This document shows, one piece after another, positions 7,560 through 29,632 of a stretch of 64,000 nt of DNA. Below the pieces are notes generated by a model. The model did not search any database. It saw nothing but the letters and a program-made list of their open reading frames with translations, and was not told the DNA's origin. The position numbers and the translations under genes were made by a program. How positions within the stretch are numbered: the stretch's first letter is position 1; every line of letters begins with the position of its first letter. This DNA comes from Yuukianura sp. NJ FZ-2021 (taxonomy: Eukaryota), in assembly GCA_046563655.1 (NCBI GenBank), contig JAJCTO010000009.1, forward strand, positions 868,001-932,000, given 5' to 3'.

Positions 7560-8461
7560 TGCAAGGGTCAATTAGGTCAAAGGGGTCACTTCGAATAAGT
7601 GCCCTACCCGATTGGCCACTTAGCGAAGGAGCGTGGTCACTTGGCGCTAAAAAGGCCAATTGTAGTTGTAGGAATTGAAAGTTTGACCCTTAAGGGGTCC
7701 GTAGATCCGGCAGCAGACCCACTTCGCCACCCTGGGCAGTCAAAGACTACCCGCGTCGGTGGCGCGGAGTGGACGCTGAAGGGACTCCTAATAGATAAGG
7801 GCCCACTTAACTGTACGCCCCACCTCCTTGGGTCAGTCGCAACTGCCCGTGTCGGAGCTGCAAGGCGCACGAAGGGAATTTCGGTGGAGGGAGCCCTAAC
7901 CTTTTGACGGGTGAACGCGTCCAGGAGCCGACAGGCCCTGCACCCTTCCCAGTCCCGGTCCCTTCCCTTTTTATCAATAACTCAATTTTGCATTTTTGTT
8001 ATGTACCTTGGCTGTCGAATGCAGATGACGAAGGGTCCAAGTCTCGCTGAATCTTTCCCTGGCTTAGCTTAGCTCCTTGGCTGGTTGTAGATGAGAGACG
8101 GAAGTGAATCGAACTTTTGAATTTTTACTTTTTATTTGTCTTAAAAGAAATTAGGACTTAAAATTTTAAGGAGAAATTTAACTAAGAAGAAAACTTAATT
8201 TGAAATTCTAACTGAAGGAAATGATCGAATGTCTTCATGCTTGCACCCTATATTTATAGATGTTACTTTTGGTTGCTACCCTGCAATTCTTGACATTGTA
8301 TTTTTTCGCAAAATTTTGGGAAATTCGCAACTTTGTATTTTTATAATCTAAAACCATGTTCAAGCCAACAGCAATCTCAATTGCTGGTGACTTGAATCTG
8401 GTGTCTTCCCATGCACTCTAATGCATCTGCAACTTAGAGCTTAACCTTATTGATCCCATTA

Positions 8462-11061
8462 TATATATATGTTTATAAGAGGGGGCTCACTACCTATTAA
8501 TTAGGATAGTGAGGCCCACGCTGAGCATGCGCTATATGGCATATTTCAGTCTCTCCTAGAAAAACAGCGTTATTCTATCGGGGTATCCCTCTGCTTTCCC
8601 CGATTTAACCTTCCTGACCTCTTTGTAAAGTCAAGTAGGGAGGGCAGAGGGATGTCTGCAAGGTCTGTTCTATCTAGGAATGCTTTCCCAAACAGAACAA
8701 GCCTAGTACGGGCGTGCCCCTCGCATCCCAACAGAAAATGGTCTCTACTTTCCTCCTCCTTCCCACAGACACTGCAGGTTGGGGAGTCCGCAAGTCCTAT
8801 TCTGTATAGGTGCTTTGCTAGCAAGCAATGTCCGGTCACAATCATAGCCAGTAGACGCAAAGATCCTCGGCTGAGGTTTAGACAGAGCTTTGCCGTTTTC
8901 TTGCTGAAACTCGTCAGCAGTGTTTTTGCGTCTTTGCAGTCCTGGCTGTTTCTCCACCTTTCCTCGTGGCACTGCTTCCCCCATCTACTGATAGCAGTGT
9001 GTACAGTGCTCACAGGTACAGGTAGAGTAGGCGCAGGACCAACAAATGGTATTTCCGTTGCTTCCTTAGCTAACCCATCGACAGTCTCGTTCCCTTCGTA
9101 CCCGCTATGTGCTGGTATCCAGTGTACTGTGACTTGCCTGGTGTTGGCCAATGTGTTGAGCGCGTCAAAGCATTCTCTGACCATGCCAGCTTGTGGCCAA
9201 GGGCTAATTAGAGAGTCTAAAACGCTCTTTGAGTCTACGTAAATGTGCGCGGGGAAGACATTCCTTTGGAGTAATAGTCTTCTCGCTGCACATAAAAGAG
9301 CAAAAACCTCCGCCTGGGGCACGCTAGGGTGCTTTCCCAGGGGTAGTTTGTACCCTTTTGCTGGTCCATCCGGTGGTACGATGTAAAACGCTGCACCAGA
9401 TTTCCCGTCTATGCGTGAACCGTCAGTGTAGCAGTTTATCGCATCACTAGGAGGACCACGTTTTGCCCGTTCCTTCCACTGCTTCCTCGAGATCACTTCT
9501 ATCTCAAAGTATCTCTTAGTCGGCAGTATGTTATATCTCTCGCAAGGAAATCCCATTTCTGGGATATCGCATGCGAATGATTCGCAGACTTGTGCGTGAG
9601 TTTGGGTCTTCAGAAAGTTGACCCTAGCGGGAATCCAGTCACTAGAGATTCTAAGCCGGTGCATGGTCCGGAGTGCAACCTCCTTAAGATGGATGTCTAA
9701 CGGTCTTAGGTTCAATAGAGCCTCCATGGCTGCTGTCGGTGTAGATTTCATCACTCCGAAAGTCGCCAACAGGGCAGCTCTTTGAACCTTGACCAGAGGT
9801 TTTATGGTGTTGGGTTTATGAGCAGCCTCTGTCCAGACCAGCCCACCATAGGTTATGGCTGGTCTAACTACGGCCTCGTAAATCCAGTGTGTGTACTTTG
9901 GGGAGAGTCCTTACGTTTTTCCAATAGCGCGTTTGCATTGTGCTAACGCGATGGAGCCCGTGAGTGCTCTCCGTTTAATGTGTGCATTACAGTTCAGTTT
10001 GTCGTCTAAGGTCACCCCTAGATAACGTACAGCTTTGGAATATTTCACCTCCACACTCCCAATTTTGAGAGGTATTAGTTTTGTGTTTCGTTTGTTAGTG
10101 AACAAAATGGCTTCTGCCTTTTCCCCACATAGACCTAAGTCAATGTCTGGGCGGCGACACCATTCCATCACTAAATTAAGTGCCTGCTGCACTATATTTA
10201 CGATGGTGGGGTAGTCGACTCCAGAGTGGAGTAGTCCCACATCGTCAGCAAAGGCCTGGCTTAATACTTGTGGAAAGCGACTGTCTAATGACGTCAGCAC
10301 TTCACTTACAAGTAGGATCCAGAGTAAGGGGGAGAGCACACCACCTTGTGGGCATCCCCGTTCGACTTCACTTTCCACGGATTCGTCATGCAGTCCACCG
10401 ACGACCGTGCGGGACATGAGCATATGTTGTACCACTCGGATACAACCATCCTCTAGTCCCTCCCTGTGCATTGCAGCAATCATTGAGCGAAACGTCGCAT
10501 GGCTGAATGCTCCTTCAATGTCCAGGAGCACGGCCAGCGCGTACTTTTGATTGCGTAGTGCATGCTCTGCTAGACTGACGAATCTATGCAGGGCAAGTTC
10601 CGTAGAGCACCCCTTAGGTAGGCACATTGTCCAGCTCCTTTCAGTCTTTCCACTAGGGCGGGAGACCGTAGGTGCCAGTCAATTAGCCTCTCGAGGACCT
10701 TGAGCAGGAAGGAAGTCAGTGATATGGGCCTCCAGGAGTTGGCCCTGCAGTAACTGTCCTTCCCTGGCTTAGGGATGAAGACCGCTTGTGTCTTCCTCCA
10801 CTTTGTAGGAATGTATCCAAAACGTATACATCCTCGCATTATGGTGCCCAGTATGGGGGTAAGAACCTCTTGTCCTGCAATAAGCATTCCCGGAAATATT
10901 TCGTCCGGTCCAGCTGCCTTGTTTGGACTAAAAGTTCTGAGCACCCTACCCACTGTGGCGTCATTTGCAACCTCCGTAGCGATTGAATCACTAGCGGAGT
11001 GATCATGTACAATCTCCTGTCTTTGAGGATCAGGAGGATAATGTTTGTGAAGTTAGGTTAG
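8462..11061 (-). mobile_element. 5'-truncated non-LTR retrotransposon (LINE with RT and RNase H; LOA/Lian-like)
   Basis: TSD TTATTGATCCCATT(A) at 8447-8461 and 11062-11076; (TA)n 3' tail at 8461-8470; absent from the 5' LTR. Confidence 0.93.
8570..11040 (-). pseudogene. LINE ORF2 fragment: reverse transcriptase, RNase H and C-terminal CCHC-like motif
   Basis: Motifs KAAGPD, WRPISLTS, LDIEGAF, GCPQGGVLSPLLW, AFADD, YLGVTLD, YTDGS, AEVFA, DSKS, WIPAHSGYEGNETVD and CSVCGKEEESRDHFLLGC. Frameshift near 10620 and a stop at 9911-9913 (KT*GLSPK, where W is expected). Confidence 0.92.
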
Positions 11062-11247
11062 TTATTGATCCCATTAATGCCAACGCCTAAGTCTTTTCTA
11101 TCAAATTTACGACACTTTAAGTTTTTCTACAATTTGAATAAATGTTTGCAACATTTTGAAAACAGCAAAATGAATGAACTAATACAAACCGGTTAAAACC
11201 GGATCTCATTTTAAAACTACCTTCATGCACTTTTCCCAGGTGTAACA

Positions 11248-11260
11248 TCTTTCCCGGTTT
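11248..11260 (-). other. Polypurine tract (imperfect)
   Basis: Minus strand reads AAACCGGGAAAGA immediately before the TGTTACA start of the 3' LTR. Confidence 0.65.
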
Positions 11261-11264
11261 AATT

Positions 11265-13115
11265 TCAGACGTCCTCGTCGGAGCTGTAATCGGTTTCAGA
11301 GTCCGAAGCGCGATATATGGTGTCGTCATCGTCGGAGTCTATGATAACTACCGAGTTGGCTGCCGGAGGTTGTGCTGGCACTGGAGCTGGTCGTGAAGAA
11401 GGTCCAGCAACTGGCCCTGGAGTTGGCCTGGAAGATGGCCCTGCAACTGGCCCTGGAGTTGGAGTATGGCCAACTTGGTTTTGGGCACACATTGCCGTGA
11501 CTGCCATAACCGGCGTCTTGTTGGGACCAGGAGGCGTCCAGAGGGGAGGCAGCTTCACTTGAATGGCAGTAGGAACGGCTAAGGCAGAGGATCGTAGAGA
11601 GGATCGTTCAGAGGATCGGGGAGAGGATTTGTACAGGTCGAGCTCAATTTCTATGGTGCGGGCTTTGGCGGACATGGCAAGATATTTGATTTTGTATTTG
11701 TCCAATTCAGCTCTAAGTTCGGTTTCAATAGATGAGGGGGGAACATACGGCTCATCGATACATCCTTGAATCTCGCTGCTTGCAATTGTCGGAGTAGGTG
11801 CTGGGTCAACGGAAATGTGACTTGCAGTGAGCGGGGTAGTAGACTCTTCCTCCAATGGTCGCACAATGGTTGCTGACGGTTGTGGTTTGGTTAACGTGAG
11901 CACAGTTGAAGGCACTGCGGGAGGCCGAAAGGAATGATCCAGTGATGGTATGGGAATGCTGCTGCGTGAGGTACCGGCAATTGCTGGTGGAAGAGGAGCC
12001 GATAATCGCGGTGTTTTCGCAGGAGGAGGGCTATCTTCGGGTGAAGCGATTGGTTGTGGAGAGTGTCCAGTGGATGAAGCTACTGCACCGATGTCGTCCA
12101 TAAAGAGGTTGTTGATTTCGGCTATGACTTCCGTTTTAGTCAATGGGTGATCCGTAGGTAGCTTGAATGACTGGAGAAATCGATTCACACGTGCCTGAGC
12201 GTGACTTTGTTGGACGGTCGCCCATTCCCAATATCGAGTGCGAAAACTGGAGAGAGGTTGGTCAAGAATAACGCCGAGTCGAATAATAACATTGCTGACG
12301 AGTTTGTCCAAACGGCGGGAAGGAACGTCTGCTGGAACTATTAGCGGTCGAGAGCCTTTTACTAATCCAGGTGATTTAAGCTGCTTACTTGCAGCTTGTC
12401 CCGAGGCTTTTACCATGATTCTGATGACATCTGCAAAATCAGCTCGTTTTGTCAATCCAATCATCATACGTTTCCAGAGGCGAAGCAGAGTGTCTGTGTG
12501 TGCTTTCATGGCTGTATATAGCTTGAGGAGAGTGGGATCATGAAATTTCGGTTTTTGATGCGATTCTCCAAGGAATTGTTCGCATAAAAGGTTGAAACTG
12601 ATATCATGTGTCCAAGCTGGCGTGAGCTTGAGTTGAGTGATGTCAATGGCAGCTACTGTGTAAAGGCCGAAATCTCGAATGAGCCAAAGAATCTCACTGT
12701 AGGAGGCAAAAATTTTTGGCGTAGTGGCGTCCAGGAAAATTGGTTCTAAGAGCGGCTTGATTTGAAGATAAAGCTCCTTGGTTTCAATGACACATGACAT
12801 ACCTAATGAGCAGAGGCCAATAGCTGTAGTCTCCCCTAAGTAAGTCTCTTCGTTTTGGAAGCATGTGACTGCAATAGGTTCTTGCCTAGGTATGTGTGAA
12901 ATAAACTTTTGGACCTGCTCATGTCTATGGAAGTAGGAGTGGGGATGATGAATAGTTTTGGGAAGAGCAGAGGGATGTATGGAGGAAATTAAGGAGGCAC
13001 CCTGGACTGCCCGAATCTGAGACCGAATTTGGTGATTCAAAACAATGGTTCTGCGACGGTTAATTCGCAATCTCTCAGCCCATCGATCCTTAGCAGAAGT
13101 GTAAATTGAAGACAT
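11265..13115 (-). CDS. Accessory protein: degenerate Rrp6/EXOSC10-like DEDDy exonuclease domain plus a Pro/Ser-rich tail with a short coiled coil (616 aa)
   Basis: EPIAVTCF...YLGETTAIGLCS...VIETKEL...IFLDATTPKIF...ILWLIRDFGLYTVAAID parallels the Rrp6 pattern (IAVDLE...LGLTCLMQIS...IIDTLEL...DPAIVKVF...IEWLQKDFGLYVVNMFD). The acidic catalytic residues are replaced. Intact ORF, preceded by TTTCAG|ATG. Confidence 0.72.
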   Translation of the reverse strand: MSSIYTSAKDRWAERLRINRRRTIVLNHQIRSQIRAVQGASLISSIHPSALPKTIHHPHSYFHRHEQVQKFISHIPRQEPIAVTCFQNEETYLGETTAIGLCSLGMSCVIETKELYLQIKPLLEPIFLDATTPKIFASYSEILWLIRDFGLYTVAAIDITQLKLTPAWTHDISFNLLCEQFLGESHQKPKFHDPTLLKLYTAMKAHTDTLLRLWKRMMIGLTKRADFADVIRIMVKASGQAASKQLKSPGLVKGSRPLIVPADVPSRRLDKLVSNVIIRLGVILDQPLSSFRTRYWEWATVQQSHAQARVNRFLQSFKLPTDHPLTKTEVIAEINNLFMDDIGAVASSTGHSPQPIASPEDSPPPAKTPRLSAPLPPAIAGTSRSSIPIPSLDHSFRPPAVPSTVLTLTKPQPSATIVRPLEEESTTPLTASHISVDPAPTPTIASSEIQGCIDEPYVPPSSIETELRAELDKYKIKYLAMSAKARTIEIELDLYKSSPRSSERSSLRSSALAVPTAIQVKLPPLWTPPGPNKTPVMAVTAMCAQNQVGHTPTPGPVAGPSSRPTPGPVAGPSSRPAPVPAQPPAANSVVIIDSDDDDTIYRASDSETDYSSDEDV

Positions 13116-13281: not shown

Positions 13282-14160
13282 TTAATGTAGGAACCGATTA
13301 CTTCTAGGTCGGAGTTCGTAGTCTCCCCGGGATTTAAGTCTGATGTGGTACATCAATTCCTCTCGAATTGATCTACCATATCGACGATAACCCTCAAGCG
13401 TTTTTAACAATAGCCGAAATGAGGATTTTGCATCGCATTGAAGCAAATCAATGCAAATGATGTCTTTATATTTGAAATAGTAGCTCGGAGGATAAATTTG
13501 AAACCGAAGGCAAATGTTTTCGATATCCCGGGTAGCTAATTGTAAAAAGAAATCGCTCCGAACTCCGATCTGGCTCTGGGTCCGATCTCCCGATTTTTCA
13601 ATAAACTCCAAAACTGGAAATAATTTTCCTTCCGGGAAAACCTCATTGCCGCTATTGCCCAAAATTATTGGCCGTAAATCGAAGGTTCGCCGAGTGCGGC
13701 ATATCGTCGGGATAACGAGAAGGTTGAAGCGGACTTTCCTCATCCAAGCCGTCTCGGCAAAAGTTGCGCGCGGAACGTTTTCCTCTCGTCGCGGAAGCCG
13801 TGCGACTTCTTGCAACTCATACTTATCAAATCTTTCACAAATGATTTCAGCGACTTGTTGACCGCGCTTAATAATTCGGTTAGTATAATCATGAGAATAA
13901 AGGATAATCTCGATTGGTCCGCGCTGGTCCCGTTCAATTAAGTCCATTATTACGTTAATTAAATTTCCGAGTTCGCTGGATGGAACTATACGACCGTAAG
14001 TTCCTTCCGGGAGGTCAACTTCAATAAAGGTTCGAATTACTGCTGTTCCCTTGGCCGCTAAAACAGTATCAGCTGGACATAGAAACACAAATCCTGGAAG
14101 AATTCCAGAACTTGGTCGGAGTGGCAATGCAATGCTGGCACACCGTTTGAATCGCAACAT
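13282..14160 (-). CDS. Accessory protein: degenerate trimeric dUTPase-like N-terminal domain plus an unknown C-terminal domain (292 aa)
   Basis: LPEGTYGRIVPSS, LIERDQRGPIEIIL and IKRGQQVAEIICER correspond to dUTPase motifs 2-4. Motif 1 (AGYDL) and the motif 3 Asp/Tyr are altered; motif 5 (RGxGGFGS) is absent. Confidence 0.78.
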   Translation of the reverse strand: MLRFKRCASIALPLRPSSGILPGFVFLCPADTVLAAKGTAVIRTFIEVDLPEGTYGRIVPSSELGNLINVIMDLIERDQRGPIEIILYSHDYTNRIIKRGQQVAEIICERFDKYELQEVARLPRREENVPRATFAETAWMRKVRFNLLVIPTICRTRRTFDLRPIILGNSGNEVFPEGKLFPVLEFIEKSGDRTQSQIGVRSDFFLQLATRDIENICLRFQIYPPSYYFKYKDIICIDLLQCDAKSSFRLLLKTLEGYRRYGRSIREELMYHIRLKSRGDYELRPRSNRFLH

Positions 14161-14173
14161 AACGCCAATTTAG

Positions 14174-14872
14174 TTATAGAAATTCCCAAAGAGCTATATC
14201 AAGCCACTCGTCCGTTACGCCTAATCCGCGACGCGTGTAGTATCTTCGAGCGCGTTGCCGAGCTCTGCGTTGAGCGGTAGTAAAAGCCGATAAGTAGATA
14301 GGAAGTTCTCGCGCGTAAATTATTTCTAAATGAGTCGCTAAGTCTTCTCTATCTTTTGTATACTTTCGAATTTGTTTTGCTAATGTTTGAAAACGGTATG
14401 GTTTTGGGCGAGGCCCAAGAGGAACAAGTGTACAATAGTCGTGAAAGCTATAATATTCAATCCCGAATTTGCGCAAGATCCGTTCCAACTCTGCGGGAGC
14501 GAAGGTTACAATGGCCGGCCAGTGAAGCTGGAGTGGTTGATTGTAATCCAAAATAAATTGACTTAAGAGAATTGGAAAAACGTTAAGTGGTATTTTTGCC
14601 AAGAATTGTTCTATCTTTGTATGACTGTTGGGGTCAACTGTAAGTATTCCTGGGTAATACGAACGCTGGAGTATTACAATATTACTGAATATTTGATTTT
14701 GTTTGGCTCGAGCCCGTCTTTTCGTTTCCTCTATGTATTTTAACAATTTGGGGAACACGTCGACTACGTTTGTTAAATCGTTGACGCAACAGAACTGGAA
14801 GACTTTGTCCAAAACTAGCTCTGGCAACTCATAAAAGTGAAGGGTTCCAGGCTTCAGCGGGGCCGAGGTCAT
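14174..14872 (-). CDS. Accessory protein with an N-terminal F-box-like motif (232 aa)
   Basis: FYELPELVLDKVFQFCCVNDLTNVVDV fits the LPxEILxxIFxYLxxxDL F-box pattern; intact ORF. Confidence 0.65.
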   Translation of the reverse strand: MTSAPLKPGTLHFYELPELVLDKVFQFCCVNDLTNVVDVFPKLLKYIEETKRRARAKQNQIFSNIVILQRSYYPGILTVDPNSHTKIEQFLAKIPLNVFPILLSQFILDYNQPLQLHWPAIVTFAPAELERILRKFGIEYYSFHDYCTLVPLGPRPKPYRFQTLAKQIRKYTKDREDLATHLEIIYARELPIYLSAFTTAQRRARQRARRYYTRRGLGVTDEWLDIALWEFL

Positions 14873-16008
14873 ACGGACTTGGCGGTGTGACCTGGCAGGT
14901 CAAGAATTCGTCGTGAGCGCTGCTTTACAGCTAGCCAACTCAACAGTTTCCTTTTTGGGGAATTTGCAAGTGCTAACTCAGGAATTTTCTTTGTCTAAAG
15001 ATTTGAATAAAGCGAGATTTCCTTGTCAACCTAAAATTAAAAAGAGCTTCGTCGAACATGATGAATAGTTTTTCAATTTGATATTGAATATTAATTAATT
15101 ATGTGGCTGGTATGCCAAAACACGTCATGACGACCAGGTTAGAGGTCAAGGTCCTTGCTCTCATTCGAATTTGGATTTGGAAAATCTAAATAATCATGTG
15201 GCAATGCTGTTTCATTGTAGTGATTTCTAATCCGTGCTTACTAAGAATTCGCATTCTACGACAACCCGTGAAAGGTTCTTTGAATCTACGTAATAAATAC
15301 TCAATCATATTTGTTTACTAAAAATGGAAACATTCTTCTGCTCCGAATTTCAACCATGTTATGCAGGATTAATTGACGTGTACACTTTGGCCAAGGAGTA
15401 ATGGCTTAAGAAACAGGCAACATAGAACGATTCACCAACTGTAACCGTTCTAACTGCTTTGAAGAAATATTCCATGGAGTATTATAATTTTATACGTTAA
15501 GATCTAGTTTATTTTGACATTGTAGTCAAGGCAAGAAACGGTGTTAAACAACATTGTGTCTCCCGCATTTGGTGAAATTCAGTCAGTGCACTTTTGAACC
15601 AATGCTGAACTTTGCATTAGAAGACTGGGTCATTTCACAAAACAAATGTTTACGTTGGAATCGGCGACCGTGACAGAAGAACCTACAATTCTTCATGACA
15701 ATATGTCGATTGAATCTCAGTTTTAGAGGCTGAGGCGCTGGATGCTAACACTCCTCGAAGGCACAAATCCGAATTCATACCATTACTCTAATCAGAACGG
15801 AAGTCATTAACCTGACAGAATTTTCCAATACTGTAATCCGGACCGGAATTAACTGTATGGATTTTACCAAATTGACAAAATTGACAGATATTTTTAGCCT
15901 GTACCATAGGCATTAATAAGTGCAAAGGTCCCGTGGCACTATTAAATTGCAACACTACGTTTTTACTACGTTTTCTTTCACAAGGTAAAACAATGTAAAT
16001 CAACTTCG

Positions 16009-16191
16009 TTAATCATTTTCTTTATCTTCTTCAAGTTCTCTCTCCATAACCTCAATTCTAACAGTCAACTCCTGAATTTTTGCTTGACAGAAACAAAGTC
16101 TAGCGGTCTTATTTCGCCTGCGCTTGGCCAGTCGTATGGCGGCTAACATGAGAGCTCGTCGTCGCTTCCTAAGCTCGCGCTCTAAGTCCAT
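16009..16191 (-). CDS. Small basic/coiled-coil (bZIP-like) protein, 60 aa
   Basis: Basic stretch RKRRR...KRRRNK followed by a heptad-like IQELTVRIEVMERELEE; TTCTGTTTTAG|ATG acceptor directly at the start. Confidence 0.4.
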   Translation of the reverse strand: MDLERELRKRRRALMLAAIRLAKRRRNKTARLCFCQAKIQELTVRIEVMERELEEDKEND

Positions 16192-16330
16192 CTAAAACAG
16201 AATAGTTACACTAACAATTTCATTGTTGATTTAAAATTACAGGGCACAATTCAGTGTACACCTGATCAAAATTTATAATTCTACAATTCTCGACTACTAC
16301 TACAGTTCATATGAACATCTTTAGTCACTT

Positions 16331-18574: not shown

Positions 18575-18630
18575 ATCTATATTACAACCTGAATTAATTT
18601 CTGTTCCATTCGATTTCCCTTTTAGAATAA

Positions 18631-21600
18631 CTATGAGTCTATTCCAAACCTAACAGGTTTCTTGACTTCTCTTCCAGCCCTAGTTCTAACAACATTTTCA
18701 AGTTTATCTTTTTCAATCTCCTCGTCTTCAGTTGACGATGCATTTTCACTACTTTCACTTTCAGATTCAGAGCCTAAGCTCACTTTATCTACAGTAGGTT
18801 CTTCAAACTCAAATTCTAACAGATCATCCGGAATCAACTTATCCGAAGGATCTGCTTCTGGGGTTTCCGTTATCTTTACCACTTCCATAGGAAGCTTTCC
18901 CGGTTTAGAATCTGCCCGTCCCGGGTCAGACAAACACAGCTTGTGACAAAGGTGGGTCATACCTTCACTGTCAATAAATTTCTTTAAATTAGAAATATGA
19001 ACGCGAATCGGATCTGAGTCATCTTGTTGCTTATGAGGCTTGCATTTGTAAGACAGAGCAGAGTTCTTTTGAACAATAACATAAGGACCGCGGTAACGGA
19101 AACACAATTTCCGTGACCTGCCAGGGTCCACCTTGGTCACTTTGACCAAAACCAAATCACCAATTTCAAATTCATCAAGGAGACGCTTGGCATCGCAGGA
19201 CTTGGCCTGACGAGCCTGCGCTCTTTCAATGCCAAGTTTGGCTAAATCTCTAGCTTCCTGCATTTTGCGTATGCGAGTGGGAATGTCGTCGTTGGATTGT
19301 ACAGTATCCCAGACAAGATCCAACGGATGGTTCGGGTGGCGACCGAACATTATGTAAAAACCGGAAAAACCAGTGCTTTCTTTGTGTTCCGCTGTATTTA
19401 GGCTGAAAACGGCAGACCCTAAATACTTGTCCCAATCTCGCTGAGACACGGAAGTGTAATTCGTTAAAACTTCTTCAATACTTCGGTTCTGGCGCTCACA
19501 GAGCCCGTTAGTTTGACTATGGTACGGACTGGAAAAGACGTTAATAATCCCAAGGGATTTGTGAAACTGTTTGAAAAAGTCAGACGTAAAAATTGAAGCA
19601 TTGTCGCTGAGAAGAGTTTTTGGTAGTGCATGAGTCTGAAAAATGTCAGTCAAGAAATCTAACATGACTTTAGTAGTTTGCTTTTTGATAGCCCGGGCGA
19701 AAACAAATTTAGAAAGAAATTCTACAGCAACGACAATGAATTTGTTACCTCGCTTTGACGATGGCAGCGGTCCAATGACATCTAAACTCATTCGATCGAA
19801 CATTTGACCTACGGAAATAGGGCACAATTTCCCCAAAGGTTTCGTATTTCTACTGCGCCGAAGCTGACACGTTTTGCAACAACGGACATAATTCACGACG
19901 ATCTTAGGCATTTTGAAAAAGAAGACACTGCGACGAACGCGCTCCAGAGTCCGCTCTACTCCCATGTGACCAGAATGAATGTCGTCATGGAAACGTGGCA
20001 GTATCTCAGGAATTGAAAGATGAGGAATTACGGGTAAAAGTTTCCCGGTTTTGATACATTTCCACTTGAGCAATTCATCATCAAGAATAAACTTTTTAGA
20101 GAATTTATGGTGAGGATGTGATTTAAGTTTTTGGATAATAAATTTCAATTTGGAGTCAGCCAATTGATTGCGCTGAAGATCGTCGGTAGAATCGGTAGGA
20201 GTGACAACCGTGGTAAGAAACCAAGGAATCGGAAAGTCATCTTTGAATTCTTGTTCATCGTCGATCGGAAAGCGGGATAGACAATCTGCCTGATAGTGAG
20301 TTTTTCCATTCACATGACGAATCTCGTAGTCTACGTCCTGCAAACGTAAGGCCCATCGAGCTAACCGACTATTTCTGAAATTCCTGCATGTTTTTAAATA
20401 ACAAAGACTATGATGATCGACCGCGATGATCAATGGCCCAAAGCCAATGTATTCACGATATTTTTCTAATCCCCAGACAACACTGAGAGCTTCTTTGTCC
20501 GTTGTGCTATAACGCTCTTCAGCACCCTTCAAAGTTCGACTAGCATACGCAACGACTTCTAATTTCCCGTCTAAATTTCTTTGATTTAAAATTGCCGAGA
20601 TACCTTTGTTAGAAGCATCCGTATGAAGCTCTAATTCAAAGTTTTCATTAAAGTAAGCTAAAATAGGAGCTGTCATAAGTTTACTTTTAAGTGTTTCAAA
20701 CGCTTCCTGACAATCTGAACTCCACTGAAATGGCTTATCTTTCTTTGTGAGGTCGGTGAGTGATTTAGCTACTTGACTATAATTTAAAATGAATCGACGG
20801 TAAAATCCGCATAAACCGAGAAATGTCCTGACTTCACCAACATTCCTAGGCGGAGGCATGAGAGATATCGCTTTTACCTTGGAATCAGAAACTGAAATGC
20901 CTTTGTCAGATATGACGTGACCTAACAACTCCAATTTACTTTTTCCAAAATGGCACTTTGCGGGATTGAAAGTGAGGTTAAATCTTTGAAATTGTTGAAA
21001 AACGTCTTCCAGATGTTCTAAATGAGTTTTGAAGTGCTTGGAGTGAATGCAAAGATCATCTAAATAAGCCTGAGCAAATTTATAAAGTCGCCGACCTAAC
21101 ACCTTCTTAATGACCGAATTGCAAAACGCGGGAGCATTCTTCATTCCGAAACTGACGTATTGATATTCATACGTTCCATTGTGTACTATAAAAGCTGTCT
21201 TTTCCACGTCATCCGGATGGACTTTAAGTTGGAAGTAGGTACAGAGTAGCAGACGCTAAATCCAAGGAAGAGAAAACTTTACATCCGGTAAAAGAAGAAA
21301 GAATCTCGTTAATGACGGGCATTGGATAAGACTGGCTTTTAGTTACATTGTTCAAGCGACGATAGTCAATCACCATTCGAACTTTGTCACTACCTGGACG
21401 TCTAACTAAGCTGACACCTGCACTCCAAGGGCTAGTACTTTCTCGAATTATCCCTGCGTTAAGTAATTTATCCACCTCCTCCTCAATAATGCGTTTTTCA
21501 TGAGGCGCCTTTTTGTAAGGAGCACTGGAAATGGGTGCTGCATCCCCCGTATCAATTTTGAAATATTCATCCTGCACCTTCCCTAACTGATCAAGGTCCC

Positions 21601-22600
21601 ATGCCATGGTATCCCCGTATTTAAGAATCAAATCTTTTAGTTGTTGCTGTTCTGCCATGGACAAATCAGGATTAATGATAATCTGATCAATATTTTCCTT
21701 CGTGGATTTAAACCTAGCTTGGCGAATATTGTCCTCTGCTTCAACCTCGCGGATTTGAACACGCGTCAAATTTCCTACGTGAACACCAGCATAAACAGTA
21801 GTTGGAACCGGCCTTGGGTTGTCGATTGGTAGTTCAAAACAGCCTTCTGGAATATGAGCTAAATATGGAATGCAGAGCCCAAGTCGATCTAAAAGATGCT
21901 GATTTGGTTCGAATGACAAGGTTCCTGTAATAGGAGTGACTGGCTTCACTAGAACTTTGGTTGTAGAAAATGGAGGCAAAATTTCCTCAGAAATGGTAAT
22001 GACCTTGGGGTATGATGGGTTCGATTTATTAGAACCTTGCCGCTAAAGGTGATGCAGATGAAGGGGTAGTCCTAAGCTGTCGTTGGAAAATAATTTGAAA
22101 GGTCGTGGAACTCTCATGCCGACGTATGAATAACTTCCGTATCCCTTTGGAGCGGAATTGAAACTAAGGGTGAGAAGATTTTTGGAATTGAAATCGTTTC
22201 CCAAAATTATATCAAAGAGACATTTCTCGATAACTAAAAAGGAATGACATAAAACTTGATCAGAAGATTTTGAGAAAACTAATGACTTTTTGACAGAACC
22301 TAAGATTGGGATTTTAGCCTGATTGGCGGATAATAGTTTAAGACCAGGAAGTTGAGGAACCAACTCGTGAGCTTGAACGTGCTGAGCCATAATTATACTA
22401 ACTGGACTTCCTGTATCAATTAATCCAGTAATACGACGTCGTTTATCGCCATCAACGAAATAGATTGTGGTAACCACGTTACCAAAATTTAATTCAGTAA
22501 AAGAATCTGAAGCTTCTACTGCATGACAACTATGTACTACGGAGGAATTAAGATTCAAATCGACGTCAGACCCTCCTACTGGCGTCGCTCCTCTTTTACC
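18631..22600 (-). pseudogene. pol: pol polyprotein (protease, RT, RNase H, integrase), interrupted in this copy
   Basis: LIDTGS (PR); SPWSA, RMVIDYRRLN, FGMKNAPA, YLDD (RT); HTDAS, YSTTDKEAL (RH); HDDIHSGHMG...CKTC, SLDVIGP, SDNAS, NGLCER, RGPY (IN). In-frame TAG at 22043-22045 and an apparent 10-bp insertion frameshift at about 21240-21250. Overlaps the end of gag in the -1 frame. Confidence 0.93.
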
Positions 22601-24165
22601 GCAACTTTCTTTTCCAACTGAGCTTCCGGTTTGGGTTTGTGCGGGCAGTCCTGAGTAGGATGAGCGCTTGACTTGCAGATTTGACAATTCATCTGCCGAG
22701 GACCTGGAGATTTCCGTTGAAGCTGCGGACATTGAGGCTTCATGTGATTCTCGGAGCCACACTGGTAACACGCACGGCGAGTTGCGATTTGTTCGCGATG
22801 AGGGCAGGTTCTACCGATGTGCATGGTAGACTCGCAGATACTACATCTGAGCCGTGCCGGAGTACGCAAAATCTTCTCTTCCGGGCATTGCCTGGTGGGG
22901 TGAGAGCTTGACCCACAGCTGTAACAATGAGCAACTTGTTGCGGAATTGGCTCAAATCCAACCGCATGAGCAGTGTGACGAGGTTGATAAGAGCGAGTGT
23001 AGACTGCCGTTGTACGGCTTCCTTGGCCACGGAGAATTCCAGATCCTTGACCGCTTCCCCGAGAATGCTGAGTTCCCGGTACTCGTCCTCGAGAAGCAGG
23101 AATAGTAGAACTCCGCTGATAACCCATTTGAGAAGTTTGAACCGTCATTGACTGCTTGTCATTACCTGATTCGTCGCTAATTGCCAGTGGAAAAATAGTC
23201 TGAATAGCCTCTTCTAATTCTCTATTTTGCATTAACGTTGTTTTACGTTTGAAGCTATAATCGAAGTTTTCTTTCCGAATTAATTCACTCAGAACCTCCT
23301 TAGTAGTCGATGGACTTTTCTGGTGGATGACCCAAGCTAACTCCGGGGTCAATCCTTTCAACAAATACAAAATCCGCTCATCTTCTTTAATCGAAGACCC
23401 TTGACTAGCCTCAAGCTGGTCACAGAGCTTCATCACGTTATAGTAATAGTCTTTAACAGTTTCATTTTTGTCCTTCTTGCGAGATGCTAATTTGTCCTCT
23501 AACGCGTCTTTAGTCAAACGAGATTTAAACTCGTCCCGAAAATTTGTTTCCAAGTCCGTCCAAGTCAAAACTTTAACGTCTCCTTGAGCGTTTTTGTTCA
23601 AAGGATTACGTTTCCATTCATTTTTAAATGTTGATAGCCACATCTTCGCAGGCCCAATTAAGTAAAGGCCAAAATGCTCAATTTTAGTTGCGTCATCCCA
23701 ATGTTGGGAGACAGCAATTGCTTTAAATTTGTCCAAAAATTCATTTGCCTTGGCACCCCGTTGACCTTTAAAGGTCAGTTCACCCGGAGGTGTCCAAATC
23801 GAAATCGCGCTAACCACAGGGGTTGAAGTAGCAGCCATGGCTGATTCACTTGAAATAACTTCAATTCGAGGAATTGGAACGTTAATTGCCGCTAATTCCT
23901 CTTCAGAGGAAGCGATGCTAAGCCAAGAAGCAACAGATCCGACCGCTAATATATCAGGAGTTCCTACAGACTCCGATCTTCCTACAAGTATTTTCCCTAC
24001 AATGCCTTCTGCTGTCTGTTCAGTGCTAACTTCTATCTCAACAGTACTGGGTGATCTTGATTTGCTTCTTTCTATTCTGATCTCTCTTTCTAAAACTTCT
24101 AAATCTTCTGGACCAAATTCTGGCGGTTTGTTTTGTAGACGACGACTGGATTTTTCTTCGCTCAT
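22576..24165 (-). CDS. gag: Gag with four CCHC zinc knuckles (529 aa)
   Basis: Retrotransposon capsid-like region (FLDKF...W...LIGPAKMW...TWTDLETNFRDEF...ETVKDY). Knuckles CYSCGSSSHPTRQC, CSICESTMHIGRTC, CYQCGSENHMKPQC and CQICKSSAHPTQDC. Confidence 0.92.
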   Translation of the reverse strand: MSEEKSSRRLQNKPPEFGPEDLEVLEREIRIERSKSRSPSTVEIEVSTEQTAEGIVGKILVGRSESVGTPDILAVGSVASWLSIASSEEELAAINVPIPRIEVISSESAMAATSTPVVSAISIWTPPGELTFKGQRGAKANEFLDKFKAIAVSQHWDDATKIEHFGLYLIGPAKMWLSTFKNEWKRNPLNKNAQGDVKVLTWTDLETNFRDEFKSRLTKDALEDKLASRKKDKNETVKDYYYNVMKLCDQLEASQGSSIKEDERILYLLKGLTPELAWVIHQKSPSTTKEVLSELIRKENFDYSFKRKTTLMQNRELEEAIQTIFPLAISDESGNDKQSMTVQTSQMGYQRSSTIPASRGRVPGTQHSRGSGQGSGILRGQGSRTTAVYTRSYQPRHTAHAVGFEPIPQQVAHCYSCGSSSHPTRQCPEEKILRTPARLRCSICESTMHIGRTCPHREQIATRRACYQCGSENHMKPQCPQLQRKSPGPRQMNCQICKSSAHPTQDCPHKPKPEAQLEKKVAVKEERRQ

Positions 24166-24347: not shown

Positions 24348-25687
24348 TCACAAGAGGTATAAAATAATAAATAGAGCTGCACAAAGAATCCACCATTGCG
24401 GCTGTGCCTCGGCACTTCCAGCCACAGTATTTTCGACACAAGGAATTTTTAGAAATTCCATCAATGGTTCAGAAGAAAGCTTCACAAAGTCCAAGGAAAA
24501 AGTTAGAACTTCATTGCCATTAAGTAAGCTAAAATTCATAGCATTTCTTCCAATTTGTGTGACAGGGGTCGTGAACTGTGCCAATTGCTGAGTGACCTTC
24601 GCGTCCCAACAAGATTCGAATAACTCGCGCTGGTGGTGATAGTAACACCGCCATCCGCTTGCTGTTTGCAAATAGAGTCGTCGCTCAATTTCCATGGCTC
24701 CAATGATGCTTGCATTGGCTGCTAAATTGAGCTTTGACATGCTACGCGGGTAGCCTGTATCCAAAGTTGCGCCAAAAATGTACTTAAAATATTCCCCTTC
24801 AGAGAAAATGTAAGTCATTCGATCGTATTGAAACACAAAGTCAGGTTTTAAATGTTCTGGGAAATATTGAAAATATTTGTGATTATAAATTCGCTGGGAG
24901 AGAAAAACTTCTCCGTTTTCGATTCGATAATGATAGTTGTCCGCGAAAAGGTAGATTTCGTTATAAATTTGGCAATAGTTCGGTAATTTGTTTGGCATAA
25001 GCTCTTTTCCAAATTGTCATCATTTGTCCAACTACTTTTTCGAATTGGCGCGTATTTAGGTGCATTTTTATAGAGAAATTGTAGAGCTCGTTTATCCTCG
25101 TCACTGATCCGAATTGAATAGTCATACTCGCGGTAAAATGCTGTCATAATCGCATCACGGACGTCGGAATGACGTAGTCCAATAGCATGTCCGAATTCGT
25201 GTAATAGTACAGAAAAGAAACTAACTCCCTTTCCATTTTTACCAACGATCCAATTTTCTGCAAGGTCAAAGTGTATATCGCCTCCAAGCAGACTTTCACT
25301 TGGAAAGAAAGCGTGAGCCAACACTCCACCTCTTCCATCAAATGGAGCAGAATCATTGTGGCTTAACTTTTCAAAACTGATTCGAATGTCCGCTTGCGCT
25401 GGTTTCTCGAGTTCTTCGAACTTGAGGTTGGACGCTGCTTGCCACTTAGCAATTGCCAGTCGAGCTTCAAGCTTAACAATGCTAAGATTTAGATGTAATG
25501 GGACGTTAGCAATGGACCAAGTAATGTTCCGTTTGATCCAAGGGGTATTTGAAGGAATGTATCTTTTGATACGTGGTGGATTCTTGCTACGCTCATTATC
25601 GTGACAGTGAATGGTAGTGGGATTTTCCCACTTAATGTAACTACAGTAACCTGAAACAATAAATAGTAGTAGCACGAACAGACGCAT
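24348..25687 (-). CDS. Matrix metalloproteinase (M10A matrixin) with a hemopexin-like domain and C-terminal hydrophobic anchor; split by one frameshift near 24970
   Basis: Signal peptide, RIKR furin site, W.KRNITWSI, ADIRISF, H.D..PFDGRGGVLAHAFFP, GDIHFD.AE.W, HEFGHAIGLRHS zinc motif, AIM Met-turn. The second ORF (24348-24998) has hemopexin-like EIYLF, TYIFSEGEYFKY, GYPRSM and ends WWILCAALFIILYLL. Confidence 0.9.
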
Positions 25688-27170
25688 GGTTGAGCTGGGA
25701 GTTGAGGGAGTTTTCGTATTCCTTTCTCTAGGAAGTTAGGTTTTGCCAGTGAGTGGAATTATCAAGGGACTTCCGGGAGGTCAATTCCCTGTTATTCTTT
25801 CAAACAAATACAATGAGTGCCACAATCCCATTCTGGGATGTGCAGATAACAATAAAACTTCTCAAATTATATACAATTTTAAATTTAATAAGATTTCAGC
25901 AACATGAAGGGATGCAGCCCACACACGGCAATGCAATTCCCATGCACAAGTTACTAGAAGCAGCCCACCCATGGCAATGCTTCAAATAAAATCCCTAGGC
26001 AATTTCAAAGTAGTTAGCTCGTATCTCCCCAGTTCATGGCCCTCTGGAGAAACGTGTCACCACTCACGGCAAAAAAATTGTTATTCATTGACACGGGATT
26101 TGTTTCTCCAGGAAAAAGGGTCTGTGACCCGGCCAGACCACAAAACAGGGAGCTTAATCCTGGTGCATTGATTCTGACCTGAATTTAAATAACGCGGCCT
26201 TCATGAACTGTAGCAAACCCCTTTTTATGAAATAATTTTGGAAAGAGCTACCTCTCCTGACCTGTTTAACATCTTTACTAAATTGTGAGTCCTCGCTGGA
26301 TCCTTAGCTAGCTCACGCCGTTGAAAGAGATACCTACTATTGAAATTCCTTCATAAATTGACTTAATTATGCGTTAAGATTAATAGATTCGGCAGAGCCA
26401 TTGCTACTCTAAACCCTAACCGTGACCTAGTGCTAGCTTGATCTCACAAATGAGCCTACCTCACTCCGAAGTTTCCGCCTGAGGGCCTATTTCAGTATCC
26501 ACTTCGATTCGGATTATTTGTTGAAGGGGCAGCTGGTAGGCATCACGCCCAAATACCAGCCCCGTCATTCTAGACAGTTGCCTAAGGTCACCCCGACCTT
26601 GACCTAACCTTTCGGATCTAAGTCTCCTTCGTAAACGCGGCATCACCTTTGCGCAAATCCTTGCTACACCTAATATTACATTCTAGCCAGTCCGCGCTAA
26701 GAATGGGATCATTTCCTAAAGCTATGAGTGGCGCCTTATAACCTAATATGACCTATCTGTAAGCTATTTTATGTACAAGGAATACCTGAGGTAGAACCGG
26801 GTGTTGAGCCCAAGTGGAGCCTATTTCTGACCTGGGTCGACCGACTACTTAACCCGTATGAACCATGCTTAACTATCGTACTTAACCTAAAATTCTTAGT
26901 AAACTTCAATTCACTAAGTGCCAAAGAGACAAAGAGAAAGCTGAACGCCATTCTATCCTGCGTGTACGCATAATTTTAAACGGAACGCTTCATTTTTAGA
27001 CAACCTCACTATTTCAAAATTCAAACAGAATATGATCATGGGGTTCAATTATCGACGTACCAACTTGGGTTGTCATTGAAACTTATTGTGACGGAAACAA
27101 AAGTAAAGACGACAACGACGTCAAAACTGACATCGTTAATTTCCATGTCACAGGGTAAATTTGAATGAAA

Positions 27171-27716
27171 TTATTGATAATGATAAATCCCAGAGTGAGC
27201 CTCTGGGTTATGACGATGATTAGTCAAACAATTGTGTGTGATTATTTGATTGTTGGAATCGACTTTGCGTTCCAAGCATACGAGAACATCAATCCTATTA
27301 TTACATAAATGCTTCCAAACGAGCTTTTCGACTTCCACCCAGCACCCGCGCCCACAGCCAGTGCCTATTAAGGGCATCTGAACAATGGCCTTTGTATTTT
27401 TAGCTAATTCGCCTAACTTCTCAAGACTTTTATCTAACGAATAATAGGAAATAGGAACAGGATGCCAAGGATCGCGTTGAGCGAACAAATTAACAACCTG
27501 AAGCCCTTGACCAATTGGAACAGTCTGTATATCTCCTAGGCTGGCCTTCCAGCCTTCAGCTCTAAAATGCAATTCTACAAGCGGGTATCGCCATGATAAT
27601 TGACTGCAAAATCCCTTACCCCAGGCTCCGTAATTATTAGTGACGTGTGCAATTATTAAGGGTCTCTGATCTGATTGCGGGAGAGTCCCGTCACAAGTCC
27701 TAAACAGAATACTCAT
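27171..27716 (-). CDS. Macrodomain protein (Poa1p/TARG1-like Appr-1-p processing family)
   Basis: IIAHVTNNYGAWGKGF, SLGDIQ, VVNLFAQ and VQMPLIGTGCGRGCW are macrodomain motifs. The likely ATG is at 27716 (the ORF is open from 27818). Confidence 0.85.
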   Translation of the reverse strand: MSILFRTCDGTLPQSDQRPLIIAHVTNNYGAWGKGFCSQLSWRYPLVELHFRAEGWKASLGDIQTVPIGQGLQVVNLFAQRDPWHPVPISYYSLDKSLEKLGELAKNTKAIVQMPLIGTGCGRGCWVEVEKLVWKHLCNNRIDVLVCLERKVDSNNQIITHNCLTNHRHNPEAHSGIYHYQ

Positions 27717-28046
27717 AATGAATGTAAAATGGAGATGCCTAACTACATCAATTGGATCCAGAAATTGTTCCAAAAGCGAAGGGCGCAGTTTATCCCAAAC
27801 AAAATAGAGACAAGACAAGAAAGAGTTGGAATGTATCGAAGTGATCGACTTAATGTCAGATTTGTTTTAACTATGGTTTAGCTTAATTTAGAATTGAATG
27901 AATTTTAATTTAGAAAGTTTGTGTAACTTTAAAAATTTTTAGAACTTAATTGCAAAAAAAAAATGAATTTAAACTAAAGGTCAAGGATCACTGACCTGAC
28001 CTGCGCTGATTTTAAGTCTACGTGCTTAAAGGGATGCTTAAATGGA

Positions 28047-28156
28047 TGAGGATGACGAAGGTTTTCATGAGGTTTACATGAGGATGAAGTGAGGATTACT
28101 TGAGGATTACCGGAGGATTACAGGAGGATTACTGGAGGATGACCGGAGGATTACTG
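28047..28156. repeat. Short tandem repeat (about 11-bp GGAGGATTACY units) in the retroelement 5' UTR
   Basis: gaggattactt gaggattaccg gaggattacag gaggattactg gaggatgaccg gaggattact, plus degenerate upstream units. Confidence 0.8.
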
Positions 28157-28539
28157 CCCGTATCCAAAATTTAACTTGAATTTACGAGTTAAATTTTAAT
28201 TATTTAGTTATTATATTAATTTTAAAAATATTTTCAGCTTCTCTAAACAGAGTACGCGTTTCTAATGCATGGCCCTACAATTTAGTGCAAGAAAGTCAAA
28301 TTTTTCGTTCTGCGCATGCGTCGCGTAGACCTTGGGCATGTGCTGGTAATGAGTGGAAAATGGTGCCTAGAACCTGCCTAACTACTCCTGCTCGTTTGGA
28401 ACACTTATGCAAAATACTTTTTGAATTATGACGATTTTAATTATTCAGAATTTTGAAAGTTCGCTTAAAACTGAATCAAAATGTTTTGAAGACAAGTTAC
28501 GTAATGCTTCATGACCGAAATTTCGTTTTGACCATATAA

Positions 28540-28557
28540 CCCCTGCATCGGGCACCA
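28540..28557 (-). other. tRNA primer binding site
   Basis: TGGTGCCCGATGCAGGGG, 2 nt downstream of the CA end of the 5' LTR; resembles Lys-type PBS sequences, but the tRNA is not assigned with confidence. Confidence 0.85.
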
Positions 28558-28559
28558 TT

Positions 28560-29632
28560 TGTAAGGGTCAATTAGGTCAAAGGGGTCACTTCGAATAAGT
28601 GCCCTACCCGATTGGCCACTTAGCGAAGGAGCGTGGTCACTTGGCGCTAAAAAGGCCAATTGTAGTTGTAGGAATTGAAAGTTTGACCCTTAAGGGGTCC
28701 GTAGATCCGGCAGCAGACCCACTTCGCCACCCTGGGCAGTCAAAGACTACCCGCGTCGGTGGCGCGGAGTGGACGCTGAAGGGACTCCTAATAGATAAGG
28801 GCCCACTTAACTGTACGCCCCACCTCCTTGGGTCAGTCGCAACTGCCCGTGTCGGAGCTGCAAGGCGCACGAAGGGAATTTCGGTGGAGGGAGCCCTAAC
28901 CTTTTGACGGGTGAACGCGTCCAGGAGCCGACAGGCCCTGCACCCTTCCCAGTCCCGGTCCCTTCCCTTTTTATCAATAACTCAATTTTGCATTTTTGTT
29001 ATGTACCTTGGCTGTCGAATGCAGATGACGAAGGGTCCAAGTCTCGCTGAATCTTTCCCTGGCTTAGCTTAGCTCCTTGGCTGGTTGTAGATGAGAGACG
29101 GAAGTGAATCGAACTTTTGAATTTTTACTTTTTATTTGTCTTAAAAGAAATTAGGACTTAAAATTTTAAGGAGAAATTTAACTAAGAAGAAAACTTAATT
29201 TGAAATTCTAACTGAAGGAAATGATCGAATGTCTTCATGCTTGCACCCTATATTTATAGATGTTACTTTTGGTTGCTACCCTGCAATTCTTGACATTGTA
29301 TTTTTTCGCAAAATTTTGGGAAATTCGCAACTTTGTATTTTTATAATCTAAAACCATGTTCAAGCCAACAGCAATCTCAATTGCTGGTGACTTGAATCTG
29401 GTGTCTTCCCATGCACTCTAATGCATCTGCAACTTAGAGCTTAACCTTATTGATCCCATTAATGCCAACGCCAAAGTCTTTTCTATCAAATTTACGACAC
29501 TTTAAGTTTTTCTACAATTTGAATAAATGTTTGCAACATTTTGAAAACAGCAAAATGAATGAACTAATACAAACCGGTTAAAACCGGATCTCATTTTAAA
29601 ACTACCTTCATGCACTTTTCCCAGGTGTAACA
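28560..29632 (-). repeat. 5' LTR, 1073 bp
   Basis: Minus strand TGTTACA...CTTACA; adjacent to the PBS; near-identical to the 3' LTR. Confidence 0.96.
29225..29258 (-). promoter_or_regulatory. LTR core promoter: TATA box and Inr-like start
   Basis: TATAAATA at 29258-29251, ACATTC Inr-like motif about 29 nt downstream, and AATAAA at 29136-29131, giving the expected U3-R-U5 order. Confidence 0.6.

Follow-up and report, generated by a model that had tools for sequence, protein, structure and literature searches.

A giant gypsy-type endogenous retrovirus with accessory genes on both sides of gag-pol-env in Yuukianura sp. NJ FZ-2021

In textbooks, complex retroviruses, with their regulatory and counter-defence genes, belong among the viruses of vertebrates, and invertebrate gypsy-type elements are usually viewed as three-gene parasites checked by PIWI-interacting RNAs (piRNAs); the errantivirus genome has three open reading frames (ORFs) in about 7 to 9 kb. 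The window analyzed here, a stretch of 64,000 nucleotides from Yuukianura sp. NJ FZ-2021 (GenBank assembly GCA_046563655.1, contig JAJCTO010000009.1, positions 868,001 to 932,000), raises the question of whether an invertebrate element can carry more than these three genes. On the minus strand, at 7560-29632 (22,073 bp), a long terminal repeat (LTR) element interrupts a 410-bp satellite array, and further genes flank its gag-pol-env on both sides. A sequence-only reading of this locus had described a giant complex gypsy-type endogenous retrovirus with six accessory genes that make up a counter-defence and tissue-spread toolkit. The data obtained in this study indicate that the element is probably a recently integrated, defective provirus of a complex Ty3/gypsy (errantivirus-like) endogenous retrovirus (ERV). 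The earlier description was partly supported: its structural side held, and the functions are what we infer from the predicted proteins.

Element boundaries and core genes

All features of the element given below lie on the minus strand. The 5' LTR (28560..29632) measures 1,073 bp, has TG...CA ends, and contains a TATA-like box and an AATAAA. The 3' LTR (7560..11247) is split by a nested insert and also comes to 1,073 bp after the insert is removed. When the pair was aligned by BLAST, 1 mismatch was found over 186 bp and 1 over 903 bp, giving 2 differences over 1,073 bp. A target site duplication (TSD), ATAT, was present at 29633-29636 and at 7556-7559 within the 410-bp satellite, the phase of which is exact across the element, with a repeat spacing of 22,487 (410 + 22,073 + 4). 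A primer-binding-site (PBS)-like 18-mer starting with TGG was located 2 nt past the 5' LTR (28540..28557), and a polypurine-tract (PPT)-like, purine-rich 13-mer adjoins the 3' LTR (11248..11260). No tRNA gene was detected within the 64-kb window.

The insert in the 3' LTR (8462..11061; 2,600 bp) encodes RVT_1 (1.1e-18), RNase_H (7.4e-13), and zf-RVT and is therefore a 5'-truncated non-LTR retrotransposon (long interspersed nuclear element, LINE). It is bordered by its own 15-bp duplication (8447-8461 and 11062-11076), the two together amounting to 2,615 bp, and it arrived after the provirus had integrated. Its subtraction leaves an element of 19,458 bp. Across the element, no internal direct repeats of ≥40 nt were found besides the LTRs. 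Since nothing between the LTRs other than the LINE has duplications or repeats of its own, the element is one reverse-transcribed insertion unit, and the whole 19.5 kb entered as a single LTR-bounded unit. The coordinates, sizes, LTRs, TSD, PBS-like and PPT-like sequences, and 2,615-bp LINE with TSD given in the sequence-only reading were all found to be correct. The same was true of its gene order, co-orientation, and lack of introns: every ORF is on the minus strand, in the order macrodomain, matrix metalloproteinase (MMP), gag, pol, env, a 60-aa ORF, a 232-aa ORF designated ORF-X, a dUTPase-derived ORF, and an exonuclease-like (exo-like) ORF, and the extra genes are intronless. A search for Rfam families in 7000-30200 was negative.

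The core genes were assigned with Pfam, which bore out the gag, pol, and env domains named earlier. The gag ORF (22576..24165) matched Retrotrans_gag (6e-10) and contains zinc knuckles. The pro-pol region (18631..22810) encodes protease (PR), reverse transcriptase (RT), RNase H (RH), and integrase (IN). The protease frame gave a weak match to Asp_protease_2 (3.3e-3), with a DTG visible in the sequence, and the matches for pol were RVT_1 (4e-17), RT_RNaseH_2 (2.5e-32), Integrase_H2C2 (1.2e-15), rve (9e-10), and SH3_Tf2-1. The domain order PR-RT-RNase H-IN, with gypsy-type RH and IN zinc-binding domains, and the paired TG...CA LTRs with a short TSD are those of Ty3/gypsy elements (Metaviridae). 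The env ORF (16331..18574) was of the baculovirus F type (Baculo_F, 3.3e-8; 33 bits against a cut-off of 24.1), with a signal peptide, an RGQR site ahead of a hydrophobic stretch, and a C-terminal transmembrane segment.

A word-indexed protein search with pol gave 8,000 candidates, 3,344 of which scored at E ≤1e-30. The best 120 of the 3,344 were all of Ty3/gypsy type and shared the pol domains of the element at 31 to 38% identity; they came mostly from chelicerates, many of them from spiders, a pseudoscorpion, and ticks. Judged from these protein comparisons, the element is gypsy-type with an errantivirus-like env and has no close pol relative in the searched collection. At 19,458 bp, and with four or more genes beyond the usual three, it falls outside the three-ORF, 7- to 9-kb errantivirus format.

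Accessory genes and their relatives

The first of the two genes upstream of gag (27171..27716; 181 aa, intact) encodes an ALC1/SCO6735-like macrodomain. A phmmer search against PDB returned 5e3b (1.7e-13), 2afc/2fg1 (1.4e-12), and the CHD1L macrodomain (2.7e-4). Both glycine-rich loops, GxGF and IGxG...G, were aligned, as NNYGAWGKGF and MPLIGTGCGRG, respectively. The alignments argue for a real but divergent macrodomain.

The second (24348..25687) encodes an MMP of the matrixin (M10) family, with a catalytic domain and a putative hemopexin domain joined by a frameshifted linker. The Peptidase_M10 match (Pfam, 4.6e-46) covered profile positions 2-158 of 159, and the catalytic domain has both the HExxHxxGxxH motif, intact as HEFGHAIGLRH, and the Met-turn. 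The N terminus has a signal peptide and an RIKR site ahead of the catalytic domain. The matrixin propeptide typically carries the cysteine-switch motif PRCGxPD; this was absent from the 65 residues preceding the catalytic domain, and no PG_binding_1 match was obtained. The putative hemopexin domain, located in the next frame, gave a weak Pfam match (20.2 bits against a cut-off of 21.3), and a specific homologue of this region was present in a metagenome contig, L003, described below. The C terminus is hydrophobic. The database relatives of the protein, 63 in number, were animal MMPs, the best of them with 44% identity; the gene is therefore not a recent copy of a sampled host gene. The macrodomain and the MMP of the sequence-only reading were thus both recovered.

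Downstream of env, the dUTPase-derived ORF (13282..14160; 292 aa) combines a dUTPase fold with a 160-aa C-terminal domain (CTD). It matched Pfam dUTPase (4.4e-14) and, in PDB, the enzymes of shrimp (3.3e-21) and Drosophila (1.1e-16), with white spot syndrome virus (WSSV; 7e-5) and, far behind, feline immunodeficiency virus (4.2e-3) also listed. Substitutions affect the conserved Asp, Arg, Asp/Tyr, and Arg/Gln of motifs 1 to 4, and there is no motif 5; the earlier designation as a pseudo-dUTPase is justified by these altered catalytic motifs. In a search of viral_contigs, 15 loci (L004-L018) matched residues 1-147 only, at 28 to 32% identity; these were set aside as ordinary viral dUTPases.

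The last gene (11265..13115; 616 aa), the stop codon of which lies 17 nt ahead of the LTR, is Rrp6/RNase D-like, with a C-terminal half that is Pro/Ser-rich, coiled-coil, and acidic. By phmmer against PDB, weak matches to Rrp6/EXOSC10 at about 1e-3 were obtained, and the Atlas placed the protein at 0.92 to 0.93 to 3'-5' exonuclease clusters, with 26 of 30 matches in one family set. A HMMER search over 1.84 billion representatives gave eight relatives at E ≤1e-3, among them P0064, a full-length relative (3.4e-24, 29% identity). When a three-sequence profile was run against PDB, Rrp6 was matched at 2.3e-10. An AlphaFold model built from eight sequences had a mean pLDDT of 62, with 70 to 88 in the core, and in Foldseek it ranked Rrp6 catalytic cores first (E 2.7e-9, probability 1.0, TM about 0.5); its BFVD matches were giant-virus exonucleases. 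The catalytic D-E-D-Y-D set is not preserved: other residues stand in place of the DxE motif and of the Tyr and Asp in motif III. Loss of DxE is common to the window protein, P0064, and P0066, and the loss is therefore old and kept. The profile searches and the predicted model thus point to an Rrp6-like fold without the DEDD-Y residues, for which the earlier name pseudo-Rrp6 is justified.

Two candidates for this ORF were rejected. An EXD1-like identity, the top Atlas cluster, was dropped since the PDB profile and fold searches rank Rrp6 first, and a 32-residue match in the low-complexity tail (L001) was dismissed. A word-indexed protein search with the ORF gave no match. At the C terminus (11265-11340), a short hydrophobic run is followed by an acidic Ser-rich tail, which we take to resemble a SUMO-interaction motif. 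An acidic Asp/Ser run also ends ORF1 of L002, the second metagenome contig considered below.

ORF-X (14174..14872; intact), which has a syntenic homologue in L002, is the F-box gene of the sequence-only reading, and this identity did not find support. No Pfam match was obtained at E 10 and nothing by phmmer against PDB; the best PDB match of a two-sequence profile was at E 0.11, with no F-box chain among the matches. A single-sequence AlphaFold model (pLDDT 36) was unusable. The Atlas ranked F-box clusters at 0.87 to 0.89, beneath unnamed clusters, and an LPELVLDKVF... stretch looks F-box-like by eye; both are leads. ORF-X is accordingly treated as a conserved ORF with an unconfirmed F-box identity. 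The 60-aa basic ORF (16009..16191), earlier called a basic coiled coil, lies in a 1.5-kb stretch that contains 22 ORFs of ≥35 aa in all and is therefore not above chance; no family match was found in Pfam at E 10.

A scan with the exo-like profile identified the two metagenome contigs, which come from another organism. L002 (3,041 bp) contains three abutting or overlapping ORFs on its plus strand, all open. ORF1 (289 aa) is ORF-X-like, with 23% identity over the full length and a C-terminal motif at a local E of 6e-5. ORF2 (356 aa) is a dUTPase with CTD, matching at 35% over 292 aa, the non-catalytic 160-aa CTD included (E 1e-49); all five of its dUTPase motifs are canonical (Pfam 9.8e-38). 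ORF3 is exo-like (27%, E 2e-29). On L003 (9,075 bp), an MMP-hemopexin remnant (33.5% over 176 aa, E 9e-25) comes first; it has the hydrophobic tail seen in this element and is interrupted by several stops. A dUTPase (2.2e-29) and then an exo-like piece follow it, and all three are on the plus strand. The dUTPases of the two contigs share 59% identity. The MMP-hemopexin region, ORF-X, dUTPase with CTD, and exo-like gene hence recur co-oriented and collinear across L002 and L003 at about 23 to 35% identity, and they are therefore lineage genes rather than one-off passengers. Scans of viral_contigs with env, the exo-like ORF, and queries A2 and A3 returned nothing usable.

Further copies were examined through Logan contigs from four sequencing runs (X1 to X4) aligned to the window; contig depth was not taken as an estimate of copy number, and uncovered parts in X3 and X4 were not counted as evidence. 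One X1 contig starts in the dUTPase ORF, continues without a break across ORF-X, the spacer, and env, and reaches IN (13366-19605) with 3 differences, and a variant contig in X1 and X2 spans the MMP-gag spacer with a 104-nt skip. Contigs of the source organism include diverged copies of the exo, dUTPase, and macrodomain regions and many variant LTRs, with up to 10 contigs over one listed position. In X3, which has a second organism label and comes from another study, coverage was of low depth; env and pol pieces were 98 to 99% identical, the env/ORF-X spacer 94%, and the exo-like ORF 86%. The earlier reading had named neutral evolution of the accessory ORFs as a sign against it. For the exo-like ORF, 16 of the 30 variant positions listed were synonymous and 17 of the 30 were third-codon positions, a synonymous excess (p = 7e-4 against an expected share of 0.247; rough dN/dS 0.29) that is tempered by the 30 positions being a listed subset, with 1,035 further differences and several positions sharing contigs.

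The copy in the window retains open frames for gag, env, IN, and four accessory genes. A frameshift near 21224-21255 falls within a conserved motif and splits RT, an in-frame TAG at 22043-22045 between PR and RT could be a lesion or a read-through site, and the frame of the MMP shifts near 24990-25020, in the linker that joins the two domains of the protein. X1 contigs matched the window ungapped across all lesion sites; as they probably come from the assembly's own sample, they are not independent support for the lesions. At 14173, 15153, and 21546, every covering X1 contig differed from the window, as did X2 contigs at 15153 and 21546. A second near-identical copy or assembly consensus errors are possible sources of these differences.

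Two spacers without long ORFs lie inside the element, at 25688-27170 (1.5 kb) and 14873-16008 (1.1 kb). Related contigs retain pieces of both (86% in X4 and 94% in X3), and the spacers might represent decayed genes, internal promoters, or RNA elements. Around the element, the 410-bp satellite extends from 5809 to at least 42615 in units 97 to 99% identical, with breaks of about 230 bp every 3 to 9 units that suggest a higher-order structure. To the left of the satellite, three consecutive ORFs in the same frame occupy 888-3515 (minus strand). The first of them (888-2159) matched Endonuclease_7 (7.9e-9) and, weakly, the protein-primed DNA_pol_B_2 (2.9e-4), and the region may represent a piece of some DNA element, Polinton/Maverick-like or other.

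Proposed mechanism and rival explanations

In the provirus as read here, transcription would proceed from the 5' LTR, the unspliced full-length RNA would serve as both genome and gag-pro-pol mRNA, and env and the 3' genes would be expressed from spliced subgenomic RNAs, as in complex retroviruses. In a consensus scan, a splice-donor-like site in the leader (27995..28000) was the only one scoring ≥8/9 in the 18.4-kb element, and the ATGs of the 60-aa and exo-like ORFs stand immediately after the acceptor-like ttttag and tttcag, respectively. A single strong leader donor with acceptor-like sites at two ATGs leads to the expectation of spliced subgenomic RNAs. By analogy with known proteins, the macrodomain might bind or remove ADP-ribose added by antiviral PARPs, and a secreted or membrane-anchored MMP might open the basal lamina for tissue-to-tissue spread; baculovirus MMPs are thought to digest basal lamina. 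The dUTPase may once have been active, curbing uracil in cDNA, as the L002 version, from its motifs, apparently still is. In this lineage it has lost its catalytic motifs and conserved its CTD, through which it would now act. The dead Rrp6-like protein could bind RNA 3' ends or exosome or small-RNA partners, and such binding could protect viral RNA or blunt silencing.

A fuller version of this scheme holds that the pseudo-exonuclease, with its SUMO-interaction-like acidic tail, and the dUTPase-derived protein serve as decoys for, or antagonists of, host RNA surveillance or piRNA/heterochromatin silencing, ORF-X being a possible adaptor, that the macrodomain counters ADP-ribosylation, that the first retroelement MMP aids soma-to-germline spread, and that the set has been deeply kept. 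Taken with all its parts, this version is tentative and rather doubtful. If true, it would mean a complex retrovirus outside vertebrates with a counter-defence module testable protein by protein. The presence of a macrodomain, an MMP, and two conserved pseudo-enzymes, with these genes grouped in relatives from another organism as well, suggests that certain invertebrate ERVs counter their hosts with proteins of their own for the purpose. The pseudo-Rrp6 and the dUTPase-derived protein with its CTD are candidate antagonists of RNA decay or small-RNA silencing, and the MMP is a candidate for tissue spread. The element would also illustrate how retroelements recruit cellular enzymes that are repurposed after catalytic loss.

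Several observations weigh against reading the element as a complex retrovirus with a toolkit of its own. That these genes form a counter-defence and tissue-spread toolkit is itself something we infer from their predicted products. The macrodomain ORF, like ORF-X, matched no Pfam family even at E 10, and the exo-like ORF reached DNA_pol_A_exo1 at 0.014, below threshold. The six accessory genes proposed earlier are reduced to four with domain support, one conserved ORF (ORF-X), and one chance-sized ORF. The splice sites are predictions of the consensus scan, and the two long ORFs and about 4.4 kb that precede gag are a difficulty for its translation. Among the sequencing runs listed for a 10-kb query, none was of RNA. 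With its RT frameshift, PR-RT TAG, and MMP frameshift, the copy is not self-replicating. The gene order of other copies is known from contig fragments. The single LTR-bounded unit and the recurrence of the genes in L002 and L003 speak against the one-off nested insertions or misassembly that the earlier reading had named as a concern. An X4 contig (record 26) matched 26564-26796, 27478-27697, and 29272-29632 at 86 to 87% in the macrodomain region and 95% in the LTR, with the macro-like segment about 1.4 kb upstream of the LTR start. This hints at varied positions of the gene, and the contig would represent either a related family with a 3'-end macrodomain gene or a deletion derivative.

The accessory cassette might instead belong to some other mobile element or large DNA virus, seen in L002 and L003, from which the retrovirus acquired it by recombination, the genes perhaps being shared among element types and not serving the retrovirus specifically. 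Gag, pol, env, and paired repeats or LTRs were all absent from both contigs, so that the cassette could belong to another kind of element there, and in L003 the MMP lies next to the dUTPase, on its upstream side, whereas the two are apart in this element. However, L002 is only 3 kb long and L003 begins inside the MMP, so contig ends or internal deletion may explain the absence; the MMP-dUTPase-exo order of L003 is collinear with this element minus gag-pol-env, and L003 may be an internally deleted derivative, decayed with stops as copies of transposable elements are. MMP, dUTPase, macrodomain, and DEDDy genes are common in large DNA viruses, and the giant-virus matches of the exo-like model in BFVD and the WSSV dUTPase match (7e-5) fit such a source. 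In rotifers, DEDDy and other ORF3 types are common to LTR elements and Penelope-like Terminons (PMC5408684). Against a foreign source, the dUTPase is nearest to cellular arthropod enzymes, not viral ones, and core and accessory ORFs read in frame are alike in GC content at third codon positions (0.36 to 0.43). On balance, this origin is unlikely.

Still less probable is that a one-off transducing errantivirus captured host cDNAs by read-through or template switching, the copies being functionless and still open through youth. Intronless, co-oriented ORFs would fit retro-captured mRNAs, the copy is defective, the dUTPase and exonuclease have lost their catalytic residues, and no RNA run was listed for the 10-kb query. 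The loss of DxE, however, is common to P0064 and P0066 and hence old and kept, the non-catalytic dUTPase CTD is conserved, and the exo-like ORF has its synonymous excess. The same genes stand together at about 23 to 35% identity in contigs of another organism, open in L002, and no close cellular source was found (at most 44% among 63 relatives for the MMP; 8 relatives in 1.84 billion representatives for the exo-like protein). An assembly artefact, or nested independent insertions within the satellite array, is the least probable of all, and we consider it highly improbable. A long 410-bp satellite locus is difficult to assemble and one genuine nested insertion, the LINE, is present; only the LINE has a TSD of its own, however, no other internal direct repeats of ≥40 nt occur, the satellite phase is exactly restored, and Logan contigs cross the gene borders, though these are probably from the same sample as the assembly. 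The reading of the element as a defective provirus of a complex, errantivirus-like ERV was therefore retained for the comparison that follows.

Comparison with known systems

With the insect errantiviruses (gypsy, ZAM, 17.6; Metaviridae), the element shares a Ty3/gypsy gag-pro-pol with the order PR-RT-RH-IN, a separate F-related env, TG...CA LTRs, and a 4-bp AT-rich TSD, the target preferred by gypsy. It is more than twice their size and adds no fewer than four genes, two of which precede gag. Its pol has only 31 to 38% identity to the best 120 relatives, so that any placement within the errantivirus genus is tentative. The MMPs of granuloviruses and entomopoxviruses are matrixins without a cysteine-switch propeptide, encoded by large DNA viruses of arthropods, and arthropod viruses with an MMP (baculoviruses) also use an F-type fusion protein. 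The MMP found here differs from them in its putative hemopexin domain and hydrophobic tail and in its location within a retroelement.

In the bdelloid rotifer LTR elements Vesta and Juno, pol includes a dUTPase, and there are DEDDy exonuclease ORF3s of types that several classes of retroelement have in common (PMC5408684). Like this element, they thus encode a dUTPase and, downstream of pol, an RNase D/Rrp6-like DEDDy ORF; in the rotifers, the dUTPase is a pol domain between PR and RT and the exonuclease retains its DEED residues (PMC5408684), whereas in this element each has an ORF of its own beyond env and its catalytic residues are degenerate. This element further adds an F-type env, an MMP, and a macrodomain. 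The planarian Burro/GYPSM1, a gypsy-like provirus of giant size, combines BIR, BCL2, MATH, SUMO-like, dUTPase, and env modules (PMC6431247). It resembles this element in its size class, env homology, and host-manipulation modules and, in one species, an upstream accessory ORF; its modules are fused into one huge polyprotein, in contrast to the separate small ORFs of different families found here (PMC6431247).

Accessory ORFs on both sides of the core genes are also known from walleye dermal sarcoma virus (WDSV; Epsilonretrovirus), in which orf c, situated 5' proximal to gag, presumably has genomic RNA as its mRNA, with orf a and orf b in addition; WDSV is a vertebrate retrovirus (Retroviridae) of 12.7 kb, and its accessory proteins are unrelated (PMC3185748). 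A macrodomain as an extra ORF has likewise been reported in fish epsilon-like ERVs, some of which have CNPase instead, again among vertebrate Retroviridae (PMC4977317, citing Basta et al. 2009). The main text of a survey of metazoan errantiviruses makes no mention of dUTPase, metalloprotease, macrodomain, or accessory genes (PMC13524379). In the literature searched, no description of a retroelement-encoded MMP or of this gene combination was found. The statement of the sequence-only reading that no LTR element with this combination was known to it is in line with these searches; as each part otherwise has a precedent, it has to be narrowed. What is new here is an unusual, partly conserved gene set within the known range of giant and complex gypsy-type ERVs.

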